The notes under the pieces: model-generated
What the model was told of the DNA's origin: nothing
The model's database searches: none
Seen by the model: only the letters and a program-made list of their open reading frames with translations
NCBI GenBank assembly: GCA_000165345.1
Contig: CM000433.1
Location: 288,001-352,000 of the forward strand
DNA length: 64,000 nt
Direction of reading: 5' to 3'
Shown here: positions 1,441 to 47,916 of the stretch, piece after piece
Layout of the letters: every line of letters begins with the position of its first letter
Numbering within the stretch: the first letter of the stretch is position 1
Made by a program: the position numbers and the translations under genes

Positions 1441-4360
1441 TCATTCATTAAAATATTTTGTTTTCAATACTTCTGCGCAAGACCAGTTGAAGTCTAATTT
1501 TGTATCTTGGAATTGCTTGCACTTATTGGAAAGACTGATAGTACTTAAGTCATTTTCGAATGGTCCCAACTGATTAATTTTTTCAATGTAAAATAGGGAT
1601 CTCTTAAAATCCTTGTTAATGAAAAATATCAATGCTTTAGTATGAAATTTAGATTTTAAAAGCGAAATCGGATCGGAATCATTTACAGTATTCAATACAT
1701 GATAAATTACTGTAGGGTTGCTTTTCCCTTGCACAACAACAACATCCAATGGGCATATTACAAACCTTTTCTGCACTTCTTTATTTACGAAGACATTGTT
1801 ACTTATTATTATGTCTGCAGAATAACGCCTAGTTAAAGATTCGATTCTACTGGCCAAATTAACTCCATCACCCATAATTCCGTACTTCATTCTTTTACTG
1901 CATCCAATGTTCCCAATCAGGACGTGATCTGTATGAATTCCACACTTAATGTTAATTTCTGGAATGTAGTTATTTCCGAAAGATCTAGATTTTAATTTTA
2001 ATTGCTTTTTCATTTTTAAAGACGCAGCTACCGCAGCTGCTGAATGGTTTTTAACAGCCATAGGTGAATTCCAAATTACTAGGATTGCATCTCCAGCAAT
2101 TTCTAGTAGGTTACCATGAAATTCTTCGATTATTTTAACCATTTCATCAAAATAATTAGTTAATAAGTAAAACAGTAATAATGGGTCAATCCTTTCTGCA
2201 ATACCAGTAAAACCAACAATATCTGAAAATAGAATTGTTATTTCCTTATACTGAGGACTAAGTGTTGAAAAGTCAAACTTCCTTAAGAGTGACGCTGCGA
2301 CACCTTGCGGAAGATATTTAGAGAGCGAATCCACATATTTTTTCAGAGATTCTGCGCAATGATTGGATAAAAACTCTGATAAATAGTCATTCATTGATAA
2401 ATTAATCTGAGAATTATCTTCATTAGAAAAAGACAAATTCTTTTCAGCTAACTTCAAATTACCATAAATCAAATCATACTTGTTTATTATTCGATTGTAA
2501 CTTTTCAATGATGAAGAAAAATACATCTGATCTACTTTAAGATGAAATATTGAACTTAAAAAAATAATCAGAAAATAAAAGTATTTCTGAATTATAGATG
2601 CAGTACAGTTGGCTTGAGAATATTTGTTGCCATAACTATTAATGATCGTCTCTATAGTAGAAATGAAAGTTACTGCTGCGAAAATAAATAATGTAATGTT
2701 GTAAAACGATTGTTCAAAAATAATTTTTCTATTCAAAAGTAAGCAAGACCCATTAGTAATGTCAAATAAATTGGTGTGGCAATCAATTCTATTCAATAGC
2801 TTTTTTTTGCAGTCCAAAGAAACTAATAACATCTCAAAATCTTCATAAGTTAGTTTTTTCTTGTTTGAAATGTATTCCTGATAACTTGAGATGCCAGTTT
2901 TCCTGTAAAAGCATATAAAACCATTAAATTCCTTACTGAACAGCCTCGGCAACCTGCGATCATTAAACTTCAGAGAAATAAAGAAAGATTTAAGAATAGC
3001 GAGTATCTGTGACTTACAAAATAAACAAAGTTTAAGGTAAACTAGTTTAAAATGTGAATAAAATTGATTATAAATTAGCATGAAACGTTGATTATTATTT
3101 GAATTTTTTGTAAATTTTCGTTCCTTTAAAGATAAAGTGGGAATATTGTATTCTAACCCGAAGAATTTATTTTGAATCCAATCAAAATTTTGAAACAAAA
3201 TATGTATACAATGATTGGTTAACCAGATTGCTTTGATCAAAAATATCGATTCCTAACTTTGTACAAATACTTTCGAATTCGGAAGATGAAATCATTGAAC
3301 TTATATCATTGCTAATAGAATAAAAAATTTGCTTGAGCTGAGTCCTGATAATTTCCGTAACTTGGAATTTATTATACTTGTTAGTAAATTTGCACTGAAG
3401 AATGAAAATAATACGATAAATATATGAATAATATAAAAGTTGAGCATAAATATTAAAAAATTCTTTAATTAGGCCCTCACTGCCATAAAAGTATAGAGTT
3501 GTTAAAATCAAATGGATCATTTCTATAGCCATGCCCATTTTTGGTATAGATTTCCAATTAAAAATATAGAAAAATATATCGAAGCAAATATTAATTACAG
3601 ACAAAGCAATAATTATAATCTCTGAGAGATGATTAATGGATATATATTTGCTTCTCAATATATTTATGTTCATAATGCGTATAACTTGAATTGCTAACTC
3701 TATTAATGATTTGCTACAAATTTTATAATATTCATTCAAAAACTTTAACAGGATAATTGAAACTTTATTATTTTCATGATTTGAAAATAACTGGACACCT
3801 TTTTTTAAACCAAAAAAATTATTAATGTCGTGAATAATATACTTATCAATATTTTTAATCTCAATACCAGGTGATGAATGATCTTGCCTCAAAGTATTAA
3901 GATTTTTTATATGTTGAAAATTTAAATCAGAAAGTTGTAACCGATTAACATGATTAATTAGTAAGTCAAATAACGGTAAGATACAGTTTCTGTGCGTTTT
4001 TATATTAATTACTCGACGCAGACGCCTTTGTTCCTTTACCAAATGCTGATTTTCATTTATGTATATTAATTCCAAAAAATCAAAATCTTGATAGGTCGAT
4101 AAAGATTTAGTGCTATTCAATATATTTTTAAAAGAGCATAAAAAATTGATTTCCTTTCTAAACGAGAGTTTTTTCAAATTAGTATTACATTTTTTTAAGT
4201 AATTTTCTTTCCGATTGGGACTTTGTGTAAACGCAAAAAAGTCTAATTTCGTCCCGGTTCTAATTATAGTTTCAACATTATTGCCCAATAAATTGGTGAA
4301 AGTTGAGTTTAAATTATTGGAATAAAATTTAATTCTATAATTACTATGGTTAATCTGCAT
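1441..4360 (-). CDS. Class III adenylyl/guanylyl cyclase with an N-terminal polytopic, ion-channel-like domain. Encoded as two overlapping ORFs (4360..3182 and 3240..1441) in frames differing by +1.
   Basis: ORF 1441..3240 carries a canonical cyclase homology domain ('ILFSDIVGFTGIAE...EIAGDAILVIWNSP...GIMGDGVNLASRIESL'). ORF 3182..4360 has several hydrophobic helices and a basic 'RRLRRVINIKTHR' segment. Both frames are open across 3182..3252. Deleting one T from the T5 run (plus-strand A5 at 3239..3243) fuses them: ...KLGIDILIKAIWLTNHC.... No credible GT..AG intron lies in the overlap. Confidence 0.7.
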
Positions 4361-4453
4361 ATATTACATATTTGCCACTAAGTTGCAGCTATTAAACAAA
4401 TACTTGATTATGCGGTATCAAATAAAAATACAAAATATGTGGTTAATTATATA

Positions 4454-7837: not shown

Positions 7838-8659
7838 ATGCAAGAAATTGATTACAAGTTGGTGAATGGAACTCATAGTCTCTTGACAACTTACTTTCTC
7901 GTCTCGACTGTTGCTGTAATTTTTTCCAGCGTGGTCCGGTTTGCTAATTTGATCACGACTCACGGTAAACTTCGCAAGAAGAATTTATCCTCAGAGAATA
8001 TTGGAAGTACCTCAACTGATAAGGTAATTTATTTAATATTGGGGTTGAGCGTGAATAAAGGGTGGTTTCGTTATTTCTATCTAGTTGGGGTATTCACAAC
8101 ATTAATTTGCGTATATTTAGGCTATCCAAATTGCCACAGATTACTTTTTTTTTTAATACATGTGATTAGAAGGCTATATGAAGAAGTATTTATTTCATAT
8201 CATAACACAAATTATAGTAAAATGAGTATTTTTGTATTTTTATTTGGTATATCATACTATATTATAATGCCTATAACATTATTGGCTACCCAAGATTTCT
8301 ATGGGAAATTTGTAGTTTTGCAATATATATCTTTCGCAGCATTTTCTTTAGTTCAATATAAAAGTCATGTTAAACTTTCAAACATTAGGAGAGCAAATTC
8401 CGAGGAGTATGGTATTCCTTATGGTGGTATGTTTAAATTTGTTAGTTGCCCACACTATTTCAGCGAGATTGGAATATATATATCATTATTTTTTGATGCT
8501 ATTTTTAATTCAAATAATTTGCATATTGCGGCCGCTCTATTATATATTATTAGTTGTATGTATTTAAATGCAATACGAGCACATAAATGGTATATTAACT
8601 ATTACAAGGAGTCATACCTATCTCTAAATCGCAAAGCAATTATTCCATATATTGTTTAA
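7838..8659 (+). CDS. Polyprenol reductase / steroid 5-alpha-reductase family membrane protein (SRD5A3/DFG10-like)
   Basis: Polytopic 273-aa ORF. It has the N-terminal 'HGKLRKK...VNKGWFRYFY' and the C-terminal catalytic-region signature 'YGIPYGGMFKFVSCPHYFSEIGIY...H.WY..Y' typical of the SRD5A/TECR family. Confidence 0.7.
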   Translation: MQEIDYKLVNGTHSLLTTYFLVSTVAVIFSSVVRFANLITTHGKLRKKNLSSENIGSTSTDKVIYLILGLSVNKGWFRYFYLVGVFTTLICVYLGYPNCHRLLFFLIHVIRRLYEEVFISYHNTNYSKMSIFVFLFGISYYIIMPITLLATQDFYGKFVVLQYISFAAFSLVQYKSHVKLSNIRRANSEEYGIPYGGMFKFVSCPHYFSEIGIYISLFFDAIFNSNNLHIAAALLYIISCMYLNAIRAHKWYINYYKESYLSLNRKAIIPYIV

Positions 8660-9051
8660 TTTTCTGATAATATCATTTTTAGGCGTCCATCCTTCCAAGA
8701 TTCATACGGATTTCTGATTATTCTAAATTCAATGTCATTTAAACTTAAATTTGGTGCATTAAGATTAACACCTAGAATGTGAAACAACCAATAATTATTC
8801 TGTAATCTTTCTGCGAGCTTCCATTCATTGAAAGAAATACGAAAAAAGTTCTTTTCTTTTTTTGATGATGATTTAACTTCAACAAATATTTCCTCCTTTG
8901 TTCCTCTTGTTTTATCCATGAAAACTAAAATAATGTCGTAAGGAAGACCCGATTCTGCTGTTTCATTAACCCAAGTTATATTGAAATAATCAATTCCAAG
9001 CTCGTTACTAAACTTTTCTTTCAAGGAATCAAAGGCTAGTTTTTCTCCCAT
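8656..9051 (-). CDS. DUF3883-like (PD-(D/E)xK restriction-endonuclease-fold) domain ORF. It is probably the frameshifted C-terminal domain of the upstream giant gene.
   Basis: 131-aa ORF 'GEKLAFDSL...WVNETAESGLPYDIILVF...EEIFVEVKSS...FFRISFNEWKLAERLQNNYWLFHI' matches the DUF3883 pattern (G-E-x-L-A; WV..E; YDI; [VI]EVK[ST]; F.[IL]S.NEW..A). Its frame is open upstream of its ATG. It sits 11 nt after the stop of ORF 9063..15161, in the +1 frame. Confidence 0.6.
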   Translation of the reverse strand: MGEKLAFDSLKEKFSNELGIDYFNITWVNETAESGLPYDIILVFMDKTRGTKEEIFVEVKSSSKKEKNFFRISFNEWKLAERLQNNYWLFHILGVNLNAPNLSLNDIEFRIIRNPYESWKDGRLKMILSEN

Positions 9052-9062
9052 CTTACCTATTT

Positions 9063-12000
9063 CTAAAATATCTTTTTTGGACAGTTAGTATTATATTCTA
9101 TTTGAAGTTCTTCGTTTAATTGAACATCATTGCTCAATTTAAGAGCAGCATTATCCACATAATCAGATAATAGAAAATACTTTAGATCAATTTTAATTCC
9201 AATTTCTATTTCTATCTTCTTAATCCAATTAATTATAAATTTATCCCAAGCCATTTCATTTCTCGAAGATTCGAATTTCTTGATTGCATCTTTGAATATA
9301 TGTTTTGTTACCATGATGCTTTTTAAGTTTGGATAATATTTTGGAAAGAAAGAAGTAATAAATGTGAGGATAGATAAAAGTGCCTCTTCAATCTCATCAC
9401 CACCTAATTTATTTTGGTGTTTAACATACAGCTTATTTGTTTTAAAATCGAATAGAGCAGGAGTATAAAATGATTTTTCCAAGCATTTAATAGAAATATT
9501 CGTATTAGAAACCACTATATTGCTTTTTGAAATTAATTCGCTCCAATTTTTTCTTTTTTTAACTTTATCCTTAATAGATTCTTCATACAGTGGCCCAAAT
9601 ATATTAATAATTATTTCAAAATAAAAGGTTGAATCTAAACTGAGCTCAGTATTAGGATAAATATCTAAACTTAGATCTTCTGAATTCTTAAATAATTGAA
9701 AACAAATAGTATTCCAATCGTGGGTTAGTTCATCAAAATCTAAATTTTGCATATTTAAACTTGGCTGCATAATCGTAAACATGATAGGGGACCATACGAC
9801 TTTTTTTTCTGAAAAAAACCTATATGCAAAATGATGAAATAACATGGAATTTGAAAATATAACTTCATTATTATCTCTAATTAAATCTGCATTTAACCAT
9901 ATACAATAATTATTTTTTTTAATAGTTGGCAAATTTAGTAAACCATATAGAATAGTTTTGTCATATTTATATAGTTGAGTAACAATACTTACATATGTCA
10001 ACAATTGTTTTGAGTCTGCTTCAATTCGCTTTATTTTATATATTTCTATTAAATGAGCGATTAGATGCTTTCTTTCAGGATTTAAGGGAACTCCAAGTAA
10101 TAAAAAGAAACTTAAAATATCATTGATTGAAATACTTAATTTGTAAATATTAGAAAATTGGTAAAACAAGGAGTGGCTTTTTGGTAATATATTCTCATCA
10201 CTCCAATATAACTCCTCTAGATTCTTCCAAATTAAATTCTTGCATTCATCTTGAAAAGGAAACCGCAAATTTTTCCTTAAAGTGTCTAAAGAATTCATTG
10301 ATATGTTTGATTTAGATTCTTTAATTATTAATTCTAGCAATGAAATATATGAACTTGGATTTATTTGATTTAAATTATATAAACTTATTTTGTAGAAGCT
10401 GGGATTATGTAAAGCTTCAATTAATGAACATAAATACTCCAAGCTAATTTCTGTTATAGTAGAAAATGCATCTGATAAGGTAATCGACATGTTTTTTTCT
10501 GTATTATCCAAAATTAAAAAATTTACAAATTTTGATATTACTTTGTGATGCTGAGTATTAGTATATAACGTCAACATTTTTGGTGGACAAAGGTGTTGAA
10601 AAATGAAATTGTTGTTTGATAGGTATTTCGAGACAAAAATTGGATATGATGAAAACTGAAGCTGTACAAATGAAGGCTTTTTTATAATTTCATGAATATT
10701 GATAGACCAATATATTTGAATTTCTTCCCAGAAATCGCAAACACAATTTATTATTTGATTTGATATTGTCGTTAGTGTCTCTTCAAAATATTCATTTCCA
10801 GTATTTTTTGATAACATATCATTCATTATTATTGCCAGTGACTCTATTCCATGACAGTAGAAATCTGTTATTGATATAAAATTTGATTTTTTAACATTAT
10901 AAATAGATTCAATATGTTGATCTATTAACTCACTATTGTTTAACTTACTAACTGACCTGAGATGCTCCTGATAGTCATTTAAATTATTAAATTCAACTTT
11001 TTCAAAATAGAAAGGTAAAATTGACACTCCAAACTTGCTAAAATATGAGTTCCAAAATGATTCATCAGCATACTGGAGATATTTTTTGCTAAATGCGTGA
11101 TAAGAAAAATTGTTAATTAAATCCTCATTTTTACTATCCAAAATCCGTTTAATGTTTTCAATTAGCGAATACTTCTTGCTGGTAACAAATAAATGAAAAT
11201 TTTTTGGTGATATTGGTAATAATTCATCATTTGAGTCAGCTGCAAGTGTCTGTTTATTGCTGGTCGGACTATAATTTGATTTTGCAAGTAAAAAAGTAAA
11301 GAAAATATGATCATCTGTGCTAATGTCGTTGCAGTCAGCAAGACTTTCATAAATTATTTCATAATACTCATCAACTTTAAGGAATGATGGCCCAAGAATT
11401 TGAATAAAATTAATTATCTTGCTATAAATAAATAGTTCATCTTTAAAAAACTCTTTTAGTTGAGAAATAAAGTCTCTCTTAATAAAGTGTATTCCCAACT
11501 TTGAAATTGAGGGCATATCCTCTTCCATAATAAATAACTGTTTTTTAGAATTAGTATCAATTGGTTCTATATATCGACCTTCTTCTGTTAGAAACAACGG
11601 TAAGCGTTTTAGCTTTTGCAAATCAAAATTAATATCTGCATAAGAATCAATTAAATTTTCAATCAAAAGAAAAAGATTAAAATACCATTCATAATTTCTG
11701 CCAAAATAAGAATAATCAGAAATTATTCCTTTAATTATATCAACCAAAATATCTATATTGAATTCAGTTATTCCTAAATCTCTCAATAAAATATTCTCTG
11801 TATTATTTGCGAATGCATTATTAATTAAAAACTTATTAGAATATTTTTTTAACAAATAAGAAAATTCATTAATATTTGGAAAAATATCTAATAATATTTT
11901 AAATGTCCTTGAGTCATTATTTATAAAAACAGAATTTGAAGGTTGTATGAATATTTTTTCGCATGTATAAATACATTTTTCATTTATTAAAGCTTTATTA

Positions 12001-15000
12001 ATTTTGGGAATTATTGGTATGAAAAATTCGTCTATATTATCAGCTTTTGTTGGTAATATTCCTAGAAACGACTTCTTTAATAAATGAAAACCATTTGTTT
12101 CACGTAACTTTGATATTAAATAAATAATTGCATTAGGTATAATTTCGCGAATATAAATGTTCCAATTTGAATCAATTGATATTGATTCCCTAGATGATGT
12201 AAGCTCGAAGTCTGCTTGAAGTATAAATTTCAATCCATATGACCTAATAGGCAAAAATGAAAACACCTCTTTATTGTCATAATTACATTCTCCATCAAAT
12301 GTATCTGATTCGTTATTTATTTCTATTCCAATAGCCAAATTGTTTAATTTTTTATTTTTAACCAAGTTTGAAATATTTTTGGGAATTTCAAAATTATAAT
12401 TCACAATTAAAAATGATTTTGTAATATTTCTATTGGATGAAAGTTTTCGCTTCTTATTTGTGGGATCACACATTATGTGTTTAAAAATATTTACCAAGAT
12501 TAAATCTTTTGAAATTAACTTTTCAGATCTTGTTATTACCGTAACCCTATCATTAGTAATTAGTTTAATTCTTTTTAATTTATTTGTAAATAGGATTATA
12601 TTATCATTTAATTTTAAATCTTCAAAAATTATATCTTCTTTATAAGGGAGCCAAAATTTAGTTTTATAAGTAGAAACTTCTATTTCATACTCATTATGAA
12701 ATTTGTGATTTGGAATTAAATTATATAATTCTTCATCAACCCATTCCGGAAAAATATAGGATCCATGCTTTGAATTTAAGTTGAACTTGAAACAATAGCC
12801 ATTACTAAAAATAAATGGAGTGTTTGTAATTAAAAATACGCTTTTAAATCCGATTCCAAAGCAACCAATTTTCTTTTCATTAAAAACTTTTGAGCTATTT
12901 CCAATATCACAAATTGAACTAATATCTCCTTCAGTAAATCCAATTTCATTATTAATTACAAGCACACCATTTTTGTGAAATACAAAAATAATTGAAGGTA
13001 TTTTTCCAATACAAGAACAATACTGGTTATCATCAGCATTTTGTATCAACTCGAATATAAAGTGATTAATTTTCGTGTAAAGTTTAATTGATAGATTTTT
13101 GCATGATTGATTTATTATACTAGTGTAATTTTGAATTATCTGGTTATAATCTTTATCAAGAGCTTTTTCTGAAATACCAAATTTTTGTTTTTGAATAGAC
13201 AAAATAAAACTTTTACAGTCAAAAATATTTATGGACTTATAGTTTGAACAATATTCACATCTTAACTCTTCAAAAATAAATTCATCTTCAGTAGACATTT
13301 TTACTAAGCATTCATTTTCTTCCAAACTATCTTCAACTTCAAGCGATATTGTTAAGTTTAAAGAATTGCAATAAAACTTGTTATAAAAATCATTTCTGAT
13401 TTTGGAAGGTAAAACCTGAATTAACTTATTTAGTTCAGAAATATTGTTATTTTTTGATATGCTTTCAGATAATGATTTAACAAATTCGTCTCTTTCAACC
13501 TTTAAAACAAAAAGAATTGTCATTAATAAGTAGTCCCATAAGTCCAAATATAGAACTGGAGGGCAAATTCGCAAAATGCAAGAAAAAAAATCAATTAAAT
13601 TAAATGATTTACAAATACATGATGATATATCAGTTCTTAGTATTTCTTTTGGAAATAATTTAATAAAGTTTTCAACTCCATTTTCTTGAATACATCCGCC
13701 TATAAAATAATTTAAAGTGTTAATCTCATTACATTGAGCTATTGAATCAATCATCAAGGAATAATAAGCATGTGCTGTAGAATATTTTTCACTATTAGGC
13801 TTTAAAATTTTATATATGCATATTTGGCAATTATTAATTTTTACGTTTGTTGATTTAGGCTTATTACCATTTTTTGAAAATTTGATAAAATTAAAATGTC
13901 TTAATAACTCGTTATCAATATTCTTATCTAAAAATTCTGTTAACTCTCCATATCTAATATGGTTATTTGCTGAATACCAAAATAAATGATCATATAAATC
14001 AATTAATATTGGTGCTGAATGAATAATTTTTACTAAATTATTTGAGAAAAAACCATCGTTAAGAGAATCATTTAAGCTTGAAATTAATAAGTCAGTCTGA
14101 TTAATTTTAAGAGATAGTAAATCAACTACTCGATTATTTTGTTTTACATTGCTTTCGACAAGAAACGCTTCTCTAGTCATATCTTCAAGGCTTAAACCTA
14201 ATAAGTCTAAATCTAATCCAAATTCCTCTATTAAAATTAAATTAATTGATTCTTTGATAAATTTTTGATCAGTTTGATTTAAATATCTTTTAACCGTTTT
14301 AAAGATTGTATGAAAAAATTTACAATCAAATTGATCAGACTTTTTGCCTAATTTTTCATCTTCAAATCGTAAACAAATACCATATGTCGAAAAAAACTCT
14401 AAAATTCCACTAGTTAATATTTCTTTGTTTGTATTTGATATTGTTTTTTGACTAAAAATCTTACTTAGAACATAAAAAATACTGGTAGAATTGAAAATTC
14501 CTATTCCTTCCAAAGAACTTGACTCTATTGCCTGAAGAAAGTCAATAATTGTAGAATAATCGTTTCTATTAATATTTGATAATGAAAAATTTATCGAGTT
14601 CAATAACGAGTCTACTTCAATCGAATTTCTCATATGATTTGCATAATTAATTGAATTAATAAAATTGTCATCTTTTGTTTTTATTAAATGATATCTCCAT
14701 GAAATTGAGCTTAGAGATTTTAAAATAGCATAAAGTACTCTTTTATATCTTTGTTTTGATTCTAGAGAGAACAGATCTTGATTTTCTAGAAAATTATTGA
14801 AATGAAAAAGTCTATTTATTGATTTCAAAAACAAGTTGAAATGATTTTCTGCCTTATCATAGCATGATGCAAATGAATTTTTTGTATTAATATCGTTTAA
14901 TATTGAATATATGTTAAATATCTCGCGACTATATCTCGATTGAAATTTTTTTGAGACTGCTCTAATATGTGAACAAAATGACTTATCTTTGCTTGGGCAA

Positions 15001-15161
15001 GTACACTCAAAAAGAAGCATATCTACAATTCGATAATCTGTGCTGAATGAGCAAACATTATAAATATCTGGGTCTTTATCACAAAGCATAATGCCATGGG
15101 GGTTTTGAGTAATAATATCAACTTTCTTATTCATTGTTTCGAAAGTTATCACATTTTTCAA
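9063..15161 (-). CDS. Giant (2032 aa) SWIM zinc-finger plus sacsin/NO VEIN-type GHKL ATPase (HATPase_c_3) protein
   Basis: N-terminal SWIM-type motif 'CTCPSKDKSFCSHIRAV'. Central sacsin-repeat/GHKL signature 'FIFELIQNADDN...GCFGIGFKSVF'. Single uninterrupted ORF. Terminates in an A6 run (plus-strand T6 at 9073..9078) immediately before the DUF3883 ORF. Confidence 0.7.
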   Translation of the reverse strand: MKNVITFETMNKKVDIITQNPHGIMLCDKDPDIYNVCSFSTDYRIVDMLLFECTCPSKDKSFCSHIRAVSKKFQSRYSREIFNIYSILNDINTKNSFASCYDKAENHFNLFLKSINRLFHFNNFLENQDLFSLESKQRYKRVLYAILKSLSSISWRYHLIKTKDDNFINSINYANHMRNSIEVDSLLNSINFSLSNINRNDYSTIIDFLQAIESSSLEGIGIFNSTSIFYVLSKIFSQKTISNTNKEILTSGILEFFSTYGICLRFEDEKLGKKSDQFDCKFFHTIFKTVKRYLNQTDQKFIKESINLILIEEFGLDLDLLGLSLEDMTREAFLVESNVKQNNRVVDLLSLKINQTDLLISSLNDSLNDGFFSNNLVKIIHSAPILIDLYDHLFWYSANNHIRYGELTEFLDKNIDNELLRHFNFIKFSKNGNKPKSTNVKINNCQICIYKILKPNSEKYSTAHAYYSLMIDSIAQCNEINTLNYFIGGCIQENGVENFIKLFPKEILRTDISSCICKSFNLIDFFSCILRICPPVLYLDLWDYLLMTILFVLKVERDEFVKSLSESISKNNNISELNKLIQVLPSKIRNDFYNKFYCNSLNLTISLEVEDSLEENECLVKMSTEDEFIFEELRCEYCSNYKSINIFDCKSFILSIQKQKFGISEKALDKDYNQIIQNYTSIINQSCKNLSIKLYTKINHFIFELIQNADDNQYCSCIGKIPSIIFVFHKNGVLVINNEIGFTEGDISSICDIGNSSKVFNEKKIGCFGIGFKSVFLITNTPFIFSNGYCFKFNLNSKHGSYIFPEWVDEELYNLIPNHKFHNEYEIEVSTYKTKFWLPYKEDIIFEDLKLNDNIILFTNKLKRIKLITNDRVTVITRSEKLISKDLILVNIFKHIMCDPTNKKRKLSSNRNITKSFLIVNYNFEIPKNISNLVKNKKLNNLAIGIEINNESDTFDGECNYDNKEVFSFLPIRSYGLKFILQADFELTSSRESISIDSNWNIYIREIIPNAIIYLISKLRETNGFHLLKKSFLGILPTKADNIDEFFIPIIPKINKALINEKCIYTCEKIFIQPSNSVFINNDSRTFKILLDIFPNINEFSYLLKKYSNKFLINNAFANNTENILLRDLGITEFNIDILVDIIKGIISDYSYFGRNYEWYFNLFLLIENLIDSYADINFDLQKLKRLPLFLTEEGRYIEPIDTNSKKQLFIMEEDMPSISKLGIHFIKRDFISQLKEFFKDELFIYSKIINFIQILGPSFLKVDEYYEIIYESLADCNDISTDDHIFFTFLLAKSNYSPTSNKQTLAADSNDELLPISPKNFHLFVTSKKYSLIENIKRILDSKNEDLINNFSYHAFSKKYLQYADESFWNSYFSKFGVSILPFYFEKVEFNNLNDYQEHLRSVSKLNNSELIDQHIESIYNVKKSNFISITDFYCHGIESLAIIMNDMLSKNTGNEYFEETLTTISNQIINCVCDFWEEIQIYWSINIHEIIKKPSFVQLQFSSYPIFVSKYLSNNNFIFQHLCPPKMLTLYTNTQHHKVISKFVNFLILDNTEKNMSITLSDAFSTITEISLEYLCSLIEALHNPSFYKISLYNLNQINPSSYISLLELIIKESKSNISMNSLDTLRKNLRFPFQDECKNLIWKNLEELYWSDENILPKSHSLFYQFSNIYKLSISINDILSFFLLLGVPLNPERKHLIAHLIEIYKIKRIEADSKQLLTYVSIVTQLYKYDKTILYGLLNLPTIKKNNYCIWLNADLIRDNNEVIFSNSMLFHHFAYRFFSEKKVVWSPIMFTIMQPSLNMQNLDFDELTHDWNTICFQLFKNSEDLSLDIYPNTELSLDSTFYFEIIINIFGPLYEESIKDKVKKRKNWSELISKSNIVVSNTNISIKCLEKSFYTPALFDFKTNKLYVKHQNKLGGDEIEEALLSILTFITSFFPKYYPNLKSIMVTKHIFKDAIKKFESSRNEMAWDKFIINWIKKIEIEIGIKIDLKYFLLSDYVDNAALKLSNDVQLNEELQIEYNTNCPKKIF

Positions 15162-15173
15162 ATTAATTTAATA

Positions 15174-15187
15174 TTCCGCGCTAAATA
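15174..15187. promoter_or_regulatory. E2F-like GC motif ATTCCGCGCTAAAT (reverse complement TTTAGCGCGGAAT) in the 42-bp divergent intergenic between ATG 15161 (-) and ATG 15204 (+)
   Basis: It is the only GC-rich element in the 42-nt spacer between two head-to-head start codons and matches the E2F site class TTTSGCGCS. Confidence 0.35.
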
Positions 15188-15203
15188 ATATTTAATATTA
15201 ATC

Positions 15204-16028
15204 ATGAGAGCATATTCGATTATTATTTGTAACGAAAATGATGAAAGCAGTGTTAAAATACTGTCATCCTGTTATTGTCTTTCTAGGTACGGTGAAATAC
15301 CCCCATTTTAAACATTAAATTTGCAAGATTAGATTTTCCTATTTTGAACGAAGTTATATTAAAGAAATTTTTATTTTTATTGTAAAATCCATTACTCCAA
15401 AGGTAAGTAAATTATTATCTTTATATCCAACATATTTTCCATAGCTAAATTCAGGAGTGCAGGAAATAATTACCCATGATGAGTATACAATATTTTCATA
15501 TAAATGGAGTGATGGACTTTCAATATCTATGATATGTGACGATGACTTCCCTGCAAGGTAAGTATGAATTAAAAGACTTAAGTAAAACTATATTCTTTAG
15601 GATTGCATTTTCATCTATATTTGAAGCTTATATGAACATTAAAGATAAAAATCAACATGAATTGTCTTTATTAGACGATAAATTAATTTACAGAACAATT
15701 TTTACAATACTGAATAAATATAAAGTAAGTTGAATAAGTAGTAATTGATACTTCAAACTATTTGAATAGGAACCTCTAATTTCAGACGCAATTACTGAAT
15801 CTCAAATAAAAATTGACAAGGCTCGAGTAAGTTTTTTTTTTCTTAATTTATTCCCTTTCCATTTTATTTTTTCTACAGGAAGCTATTAATGTTTCACTTA
15901 AATCTTTTTTAGATAGAGGAGAAAATTTGGATGAGCTTATACAAAAAAGCAACGATTTGTCTGACTCATCGAAGAAATTATTCAAAATGTCTAAAAAAAC
16001 AAAGAGGCCATGTTGTAGTCTTCAATAA
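15204..16028 (+). CDS. YKT6: Longin SNARE YKT6, 6 exons: 15204..15286, 15333..15402, 15445..15557, 15601..15724, 15770..15826, 15879..16028
   Basis: Spliced product 'MRAYSIIICNENDESSVKILSSCYCLSRFSYFERSYIKEIF...SISMICDDDFPARIAFSSIFEAYMNIKDKNQHE...EPLISDAITESQIKIDKAREAINVSLKSFLDRGENLDELIQKSNDLSDSSKKLFKMSKKTKRPCCSLQ*' aligns along its length with human YKT6 (longin domain, SNARE motif, C-terminal CCxxx lipidation box). Donors are GTACGG/GTAAGT. Introns are 46, 42, 43, 45 and 52 nt. The exon-4 frame matches ORF-track entry 15536..15733. Confidence 0.8.
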
Positions 16029-16118
16029 TATTGCATGCTGCATGTAACTTAATTATTATTGCATGTGCATGCATTCCTTTTTATTTTCGTTTTCAAATAA
16101 ATTGATAGGTATTATTTT

Positions 16119-17313
16119 GTGCAGATAGCAAAAATGTTTTTTAAAGAGAAATCTGTAAAAGAAGTCCCAACTGCTCCAGCTAGCCCTTCGATATTACCGT
16201 TGAGAGATGCCAATCTCCCTGAAACCGTAATAAAGGAAGTCAGCAAAATATTATATTTTGGTTTTGGAGGTTTTTTAACCATTTCAATAATTTCACTTGC
16301 AGTGCTTCAGGCTAATACAAATGCAGTTTGTGATCGGGTAAGTTCTAATAAAAAGTTTAATCGACAATTTTAAATCGTGTAGAATCTCGATGAAACTAAT
16401 GGGTTATCTGCAATATTTTCACTTTCAATGTCTCTGGTCTGTTCTCTCATGCTTTTATTACCGGATCAAAGAGACGCGTTGATCAAGGCATTTAAATATA
16501 ATGAATTTCCTTCCATGAAAAAAATATCAATTTGCAGCTGGGCTAGTATTATTTCGTTTATTTTGGTTCCTGCAGTTGTGATAATGCATGATAGTAAGTA
16601 AAAAGCTATAATTAAAGAATTATAAAAACTTTTATAGTTGGTGGATTCATAAAAATTTCTGAAAGTAACTCTTGTAAATATACTGCACCGGGACTATATA
16701 TTGGTACGTTAACTTAATAATGGTTATATATCTATATTAATAATTTCAGGAACTTCAATTGTGCTGAGCTTTCAATTGCTAATCATACTCTTATTAACTA
16801 TGGCACTTTTTTCCTCTAATTTAATGGACTTAATTAGTTCGCTTCCATCCATAAATTTAGAAAAAATTAATATATTCATTGATCATTTGGCAGGATTTTT
16901 CAGCTATACAAAATCCATATTTAACTGGATGATAAATCAATCAATTGATTTTATAAGAAAGCATTGTTTCTCAAACTGTGCCGAACTATATTCAAAATTC
17001 GTGACAAATTTTAAAAATCTGGGATGTTTGCTTTCTTCAATTACCAGAAAATTTACTGAAGCATCCAAAAATGTTGGCAGCAAGCTTCAAACTTTACTTG
17101 AAAATATTAGTAGGCTAAGCAAAGATACAATTGAAAAAACTAATCTTTTCGGTAAAGAATTGTGTGTCTTTGGAAAAGAAATATTCATAAAAGTCAAATC
17201 AGCCATATTGGCTATAAAAGAAGGATCGGCAGGTAAGTTTTTAGAAGTATATTTGGGACAATTTACCTTTTTTAGGTTTCAACTTAGAGACTATCCCGCT
17301 ATTACCAAAGTAG
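16119..17313 (+). CDS. Polytopic membrane protein of unknown family, 5 exons: 16119..16337, 16383..16593, 16638..16703, 16750..17232, 17276..17313
   Basis: Exons join ORF-track entries 16119..16373 and 16761..17333 through GTAAGT/GTACGT donors and AG acceptors. Introns are 45, 44, 46 and 43 nt. The product has at least 4 predicted TM helices (ILYFGFGGFLTISIISLAVL; LSAIFSLSMSLVCSLMLLL; ISICSWASIISFILVPAVVIM; TSIVLSFQLLIILLLTMALF). The last intron is optional; left unspliced, the ORF ends at 17333. Confidence 0.5.
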
Positions 17314-35994: not shown

Positions 35995-36008
35995 TTTTGG
36001 CGGCAAAA
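35995..36008 (+). promoter_or_regulatory. E2F-like motif TTTTGGCGGCAAAA about 50 bp upstream of ATG 36059
   Basis: Near-consensus TTTSGCGCSAAA-type element. It is the only GC-rich island between the NDK gene and the giant Cys-repeat gene. Confidence 0.4.
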
Positions 36009-39893: not shown

Positions 39894-39905
39894 CTTTGGC
39901 GCTAG
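39894..39905 (+). promoter_or_regulatory. E2F-like motif CTTTGGCGCTAG about 130 bp upstream of ATG 40032
   Basis: TTTGGCGC core in an AT-rich intergenic region. Confidence 0.3.
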
Positions 39906-47810: not shown

Positions 47811-47826
47811 AATTTAGGAAAATATG

Positions 47827-47839
47827 TTTGGCGGCATTT
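47827..47839 (+). promoter_or_regulatory. E2F-like motif TTTGGCGGCATTT about 80 bp upstream of ATG 47917
   Basis: Same TTTGGCGGCA core as at 35995..36008. Confidence 0.35.
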
Positions 47840-47916
47840 GATAAGATCTATTTTTTAATATTATTTGTTCACTTTTTTTATCACTAGGTTAAGAGCGACT
47901 TTAACACTACTTTCAT

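Follow-up and report, generated by a model that had tools for sequence, protein, structure and literature searches.

Three head-to-head gene pairs in a 64,000-nucleotide stretch of DNA (contig CM000433.1, positions 288,001 to 352,000; hereafter the window) raise the question of how two divergent genes can be served by a common upstream region of only a few tens of base pairs, and whether such an arrangement is exceptional. The initial annotation had placed 42-59 bp between the start codons of the three pairs, had concluded from this that the 5' UTRs must overlap or be nearly absent and that cis elements must be shared, and had regarded the arrangement as extreme even among compact protist genomes.

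The window belongs to chromosome 5 of Cryptosporidium parvum. Its DNA has an identity of at least 99.99% to the C. parvum chromosome CP044418.1 and of 99.97-100% to all C. parvum loci that were retrieved, and the Tcf25-family protein encoded at 20745-22721 (658 aa) has a residue-for-residue match on both CP044418.1 (GCA_015245375.1) and CP029784.1, which are 1.09-Mb chromosomes; in one source this protein is listed as CPHLJ_5g1410 of Cryptosporidium parvum. With a G+C content of about 30% the window is AT-rich, and both of its strands are densely filled with open reading frames. A comparison with at least three further C. parvum assemblies reveals three single-base indels in the window (3197, 9070 and 20007), each of which breaks an open reading frame. 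The indel at 3197 disrupts a 972-aa guanylate-cyclase gene (1441-4360), one A is missing at 9070, and an additional A is present at 20007. These indels probably go back to mistakes in the sequencing or assembly of the source of the window; otherwise they would be strain-specific pseudogenising changes.

Two of the indels affect genes of the pairs under study. The minus-strand member of the first pair is a giant NOV/sacsin-like gene (8656-15134, 2159 aa), which is a single open reading frame in other C. parvum assemblies and uninterrupted in two other annotated C. parvum loci. In the window, the deletion at 9070 splits it into two open reading frames (9063-15134 and 8656-9051) and thereby detaches the tail with the NOV_C domain. 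The stretch 8656-9051, which had been listed as a gene of its own, is thus only the C-terminus of the giant protein, an exon-like fragment that results from the frameshift in the window. Pfam assigns a SACS and a NOV_C domain to the giant protein, and the SWIM domain after which the gene had been named was not detected by Pfam at E <= 0.5. Its plus-strand partner is a YKT6-type longin SNARE gene (15204-16028), a multi-exon gene with short introns that is annotated with 198 aa and has Longin and Synaptobrevin domains. The second pair consists of a minus-strand gene for a 337-aa protein without Pfam domain (19687-20701), which is split in the window by the extra A at 20007, so that 20003-20701 represents only its N-terminal part, and of the plus-strand Tcf25-family gene (Pfam Tcf25, E = 1.6e-41). 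In the third pair, a minus-strand gene named eIF2B-beta by the sources (60397-61422, annotated 341 aa, Pfam IF-2B) faces a conserved plus-strand gene for a 321-aa protein without Pfam domain (61491-62456).

The distances within these pairs depend on the start codons. For the second pair, both starts given by the initial annotation (20701 on the minus and 20745 on the plus strand) are ATG codons, and the 43-bp spacer (20702-20744) with the sequence AAGTTGCGGTTAAA inside it was described correctly. In the other two pairs, the proposed minus-strand starts at 15161 and 61431, from which gaps of 42 and 59 bp had been calculated, are TTG codons. To our knowledge, TTG is not a eukaryotic start codon. 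Such codons appear in the open reading frame list as bacterial-style alternatives, and they were rejected, as the organism is a eukaryote and both the annotation and the cross-species conservation begin at an ATG. The annotated and first in-frame ATGs lie at 15134 for the giant gene and at 61422 for the eIF2B-beta gene, and the spacers therefore comprise 69 bp (15135-15203) in the first and 68 bp (61423-61490) in the third pair. With genes on opposite strands, in head-to-head orientation and with much less than 1 kb between the starts (69, 43 and 68 bp), all three loci are divergent promoter arrangements by the usual definition, and protein-coding genes that diverge from a very short spacer are indeed present at the three places where the initial annotation had seen them.

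All six ATGs agree with the annotated ends of the coding sequences in several independent assembly annotations. In comparisons of four to five Cryptosporidium species, each of the six proteins is conserved from its first methionine on, whereas the DNA directly upstream of the ATGs has diverged. The giant protein, for example, begins with MNKKVDIITQ, MNKKVEIISQ, MNKKVETILQ, MEKKVDIICQ or MNTKAEDISS in five species, and the Tcf25-family protein with MVSKQFKRLL, MVSKQFKKLL, MVSRQYKKIQ, MVARQYKKIV or MASRQYKKLL; the N-terminus of YKT6 is likewise kept across five species. An in-frame stop codon closes each frame 2-22 codons upstream of the ATG, without any intervening ATG. Even over the deepest divergence within the genus, the two partners without recognizable domain have remained conserved, the 337-aa protein having an orthologue in C. 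andersoni with 30% identity (E = 3e-13) and the 321-aa protein one in C. serpentis that has 32% identity and aligns from residue 1 (E = 2e-50). By N-termini, upstream stops and conservation, both partners of each pair pass as genuine genes with well-placed starts. The very short upstream regions are thus shared between real, conserved genes, and these comparisons make it unlikely that translation truly begins at more internal positions of the open reading frames.

The head-to-head order of all three pairs is kept in every species examined. The spacer of the first pair has 69 bp in C. parvum, 76 bp in C. ubiquitum, 63 bp in C. felis and 75 bp in C. xiaoi, and 222 bp in the gastric species C. 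andersoni; that of the second pair has 43, 42, 44 and 50 bp in the same four species and 112 bp in C. andersoni; and that of the third pair has 68 bp in C. parvum, 67 bp in C. felis and 55 bp in C. bovis, and 128 bp in the gastric species C. serpentis. Tight spacing (42-76 bp) is therefore a trait of the intestinal-clade species, as compared to the 112-222 bp in gastric species. As the pairs are conserved everywhere and the spacer length is conserved within the intestinal clade, the sequence comparisons indicate that the arrangement is under selection, i.e. functionally constrained. In the gastric species, the same head-to-head pairs are separated by spacers that are about 2-3 times longer than those of the intestinal clade (positions 1656-1877 and 9889-10000 of the retrieved C. 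andersoni locus and 9873-10000 of the retrieved C. serpentis locus).

Hardly anything of the spacer sequences is shared between the species, except for one G/C run in each spacer. In the first pair, this is CCGCGC (15176-15181), the only run of at least four G/C in the spacer, which lies within TTCCGCGCTAAA (15174-15185). As this 12-bp element matches the E2F consensus TTTSSCGC at seven of eight positions on either strand, it has the character of a dyad, and the earlier statement that the only GC element of this spacer is an E2F-like motif seems to hold. In the second pair, the only G/C run of the spacer is a GCGG core (20728-20731; CCGC on the other strand) within AAGTTGCGGTTAAA (20723-20736), which fits TTTSSCGC at six of eight positions when aligned by hand and thus shares only the SCGC core. 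Judged by sequence, “E2F-like” appears to be a fair label for the element of the first pair, and the resemblance of the second seems to be limited to the core. The spacer of the third pair has a single G/C run, which is of another type, a G-box-like GAGGGG (61453-61458, plus strand) that fits the published C. parvum G-box 5'-G.GGGG-3'.

The orthologous spacers contain comparable cores. In the first pair, CCGCGC of the window corresponds to CCGCGG, CGGCGG, GCGCG and GGCGG in the other species, all at similar relative position, and in the second pair GCGG of the window corresponds to CGCGG, GCCGC, CCGC and GCGCC. For the third pair, C. felis and C. bovis have retained C-runs (CCCC and CCCCCCCCC) that are equivalent to GAGGGG on the plus strand of the window; a C-run counterpart was not evident in the C. 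serpentis spacer. In the first two pairs, a CG-containing G/C run was found in 8/8 tight spacers from four species at similar relative position, and it is the sole run of at least four G/C in seven of them, the spacer of the first pair in C. xiaoi having a second one (CGCC). When the tight spacers were shuffled, such a CG run arose by chance with a frequency of 0.03-0.26 per spacer, although the eight spacers are not independent cases, because they are orthologous.

Two E2F-like motifs, DTTGSCGCCH and TTTGGCGGGAAV, with the cores SGCGCS and GGCGGG, have been published for upstream regions of C. parvum genes, together with the G-box G.GGGG and the ApiAP2 motif BGCATGCAH, and it is of interest where such motifs occur in the window. 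Exact TTTSSCGC sites are found three times as compared to 2.5 expected occurrences, and in total there is thus no excess above chance, but all three (36000-36007, 39895-39902 and 56572-56579) lie in promoter-containing spacer, which makes up only 8% of the sequence. If up to one mismatch is permitted, the density is 3.5/kb in promoter-containing spacers, 1.1/kb in genes and zero in convergent spacers. The strict cores SGCGCS and GGCGGG occur 14 times in promoter spacers with a combined length of about 25 kb and only twice in genic sequence totalling about 184 kb, totals that were summed by hand over all retrieved loci, which are in part orthologous to one another.

How would such regions function? 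In our view, the three regions are very probably ordinary short bidirectional RNA polymerase II promoters, as they are widely used in the compact 9-Mb genome of this parasite. The organism, the gene models, their starts and distances, the conserved arrangement, spacing and cores, and the higher density of E2F-like sites in promoter-containing spacers were established in the analysis; from these, we infer that an E2F/DP or a G-box factor binds, that the promoters fire in both directions, and where transcripts begin. Mechanistically, the single GC-rich element in the AT-rich spacer (the CG core in the first two pairs and the G-box in the third) would mark one nucleosome-free region, which would have to reach into both flanking coding regions, and polymerase would start from this marked region in both directions. 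As there is so little room between the ATGs (43-69 bp), the leaders should either measure only some tens of nucleotides or begin in the first codons of the partner gene, and in the latter case the divergent transcripts would overlap. That the 5' UTRs overlap or are very short and that elements are shared, much as the initial annotation had assumed, is therefore a reasonable inference, since there is a conserved cis element in each region, and it agrees with the published overlap of C. parvum UTRs and with bidirectional, E2F-rich peaks in chromatin accessibility data.

The latter data stem from ATAC-seq with C. parvum sporozoites, in which 888 of 984 peaks were of the upstream regulatory type, bidirectional promoters accounted for more than half of these 888, and E2F1 was the top motif (Xiao et al. 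2025, bioRxiv 10.1101/2025.01.17.633476). C. parvum UTRs have also been published to overlap extensively regardless of the strand, which is a major difficulty for annotation. The three loci resemble the known bidirectional promoters of C. parvum (Xiao et al. 2025; Oberstaller et al. 2013, PMC3734150) in having head-to-head genes with a short common upstream region, an E2F-like CG core that is flanked by T/A runs or else a G-box, and an implied overlap of UTRs. There is no difference in kind; the three loci lie at the short end of the local distribution (43-69 bp) and are described here by their sequence. With respect to the E2F/DP sites of metazoa and plants (TTTSSCGC, or the 12-bp TTTSGCGCSAAA), the element of the first pair has a similar CG core, similar T- or A-rich flanks and a similar dyad character, and the enrichment of E2F-like sites upstream of genes is a further similarity. 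With seven of eight matching positions in the first and six of eight in the second pair, the elements are candidate sites for the C. parvum E2F proteins cpbgf_1001560 and cpbgf_6001430 and their DP partners.

Among 113 Cryptosporidium gene starts, ATG triplets are only about 0.67-fold as frequent in the 0-59 nucleotides upstream of the start as they are further upstream, but some control triplets behave in the same way, and this depletion is too weak a proxy for leader length to place transcription start sites. A search of the literature did not yield usable figures on the length of C. parvum 5' UTRs. It also needs to be considered that a shared spacer need not mean shared regulation or co-expression, since neighboring genes of C. 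parvum are, according to earlier RT-PCR work cited by Li et al., as a rule not regulated together.

A more far-reaching idea would be that a spacer of 43-70 bp with one quasi-palindromic E2F-like core (or a G-box) already represents a complete, minimal and symmetric bidirectional promoter, the length of which has been fixed by selection across the intestinal clade (42-50, 63-76 and 55-68 bp), and which gives rise to mRNAs that are nearly leaderless or overlap head-to-head. We consider this possible but rather doubtful, and propose it only tentatively. If it were true, one factor site would suffice to position polymerase both ways, which would be of modest interest to specialists and useful for the building of constructs.

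What alternatives exist for a shared promoter? Each gene could in principle be driven from inside the coding sequence of its partner, with crossed transcripts, and the GC element would then be incidental or serve only one of the two genes. The published strand-independent overlap of UTRs and the reported general lack of co-regulation of adjacent genes (the earlier work cited by Li et al.) would fit to this, and two independent pre-initiation complexes presumably cannot be accommodated within 43 bp. [quoted passage not shown] It is even far less probable that the tight spacing is an annotation artefact, with starts further inside the genes or in an upstream spliced exon, or with a partner that is not real, so that the spacers would exceed 43-69 bp: two of the initially proposed starts were wrong, two partners lack a Pfam domain, and frameshifting indels distort the boundaries of open reading frames elsewhere in the window, but the corrected six ATGs coincide with those of independent annotations of several assemblies, protein conservation sets in exactly at the methionine and not in the diverged DNA before it, the domain-less proteins are conserved from C. 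parvum to the gastric C. andersoni or C. serpentis, and in-frame stops shut the upstream frames.

With ordinary bidirectional promoters being the best explanation, it can be asked how unusual the spacers are in their surroundings. Annotated coding sequence extents were mapped onto the window for this purpose, which resulted in 33 genes within 64 kb, with 90% of the window inside gene spans. The 32 spacers have a median of 122 bp, and 14 of them are shorter than 100 bp. The ten divergent spacers comprise 43, 68, 69, 93, 197, 211, 293, 354, 517 and 542 bp (median about 200 bp), the three studied loci being at the short end and the gap between the four smallest (43-93 bp) and the others (197-542 bp) giving a slight hint of a separate mode at about 40-95 bp; tandem spacers range from 70 to 657 bp (median 144 bp) and convergent spacers from -4 to 563 bp (median 79 bp). 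The published genome-wide mean for C. parvum spacers is 504 bp. The three pairs are thus the tight end of a continuum and not outliers.

The convergent neighbors are as tightly packed, with coding ends that overlap or nearly abut at two places. At 8656-8659, a steroid-dehydrogenase-like gene (7838-8659, plus strand) and the giant gene on the minus strand overlap by four nucleotides, and the two genes are annotated with the same overlap in two other C. parvum loci (10001-10822 and 10819-17298). The overlap of the stop codons had been noticed before and is real, whereas it consists of the four nucleotides TTAA within GTTTAATT and not of the palindrome TTTAAA. The second convergent pair, a PRELI gene (18991-19677, plus strand, stop codon 19675-19677) and the 337-aa gene (minus strand, stop codon 19687-19689), is separated by nine nucleotides (19678-19686), and here sequence and annotation agree with the initial description. 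With a 4-nt overlap and a 9-nt gap, the 3' UTRs of these genes would have to extend in antisense orientation into the neighboring gene. Canonical polyadenylation hexamers (AATAAA or ATTAAA) downstream of the stops were uninformative for sizing this 3' UTR overlap, as most genes are without such a hexamer nearby.

In microsporidia and nucleomorphs, the mean spacers are genome-wide about as short as the spacers described here, or shorter. Microsporidia are a different lineage, and the spacers of C. parvum with their average of about 500 bp and their broad spread differ from those of microsporidia and nucleomorphs. Giardia promoters are AT-rich initiators that adjoin the ATG and are not known to have an E2F-type element, whereas the Cryptosporidium spacers of this study carry a discrete GC core. 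Giardia lamblia is similar in being a protist with a compact genome whose short AT-rich promoters work in both directions (Teodorovic et al. 2007, as cited in PMC7840661), and a similarity to microsporidia is that the compaction causes transcripts to start or end in neighboring genes and leaves very short 5' leaders, microsporidial transcripts being described as overlapping and their 5' UTRs as among the shortest known (Williams et al. 2005, as cited in PMC3629993). Considering these overlapping transcripts and short 5' UTRs of microsporidia and the bidirectional promoters of Giardia, and also the 14 of 32 spacers below 100 bp and the median of 122 bp in the window itself, the view that the pairs represent extreme compaction even for compact protist genomes was overstated.

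The three pairs are real, functionally constrained as far as the comparisons between species can tell, ordinary for C. parvum, and of a type that is already known, since both the compaction and the promoters that work in two directions are documented for this organism. As the feature has been described genome-wide, no new principle is added. What is added are corrected coordinates, sound starts, and the conservation of spacer length and of a single core within the intestinal clade. A practical value may lie in compact promoter cassettes, as a fragment of 43 or 69 bp with one conserved core could drive two transgenes in genetic work with Cryptosporidium, and the spacers offer a simple substrate for testing whether the E2F/DP factors of the parasite do act at such motifs and for finding the minimum length of a functional 5' leader.

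Some further spacers of the window deserve mention. A 93-bp divergent spacer between a 227-aa gene and a Yip1 gene (56529-56621) contains long T-runs that flank a TTTGCCGC site. These T-runs recall a poly-T motif that has been reported beside E2F in C. parvum ATAC-seq peaks. YKT6 and the gene after it are separated by a 105-bp tandem spacer (16029-16133) with a cluster of GCATGC/TGCATG (attGCATGCtGCATGtaac...ttGCATGtGCATGCatt) that is of the ApiAP2 “AP2_1” type (BGCATGCAH), and an E2F-like core was not found there. This spacer is also one of five by which same-strand genes are only 70-106 bp apart (62457-62526, 53735-53816, 4361-4453, 16029-16133 and 47811-47916). A 3' end, a promoter and a leader would all have to fit into these 70-106 bp. 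The respective gene pairs are candidates for polycistronic transcripts, which have been reported for C. parvum (Xiao et al. 2025, bioRxiv 10.1101/2025.01.17.633476).
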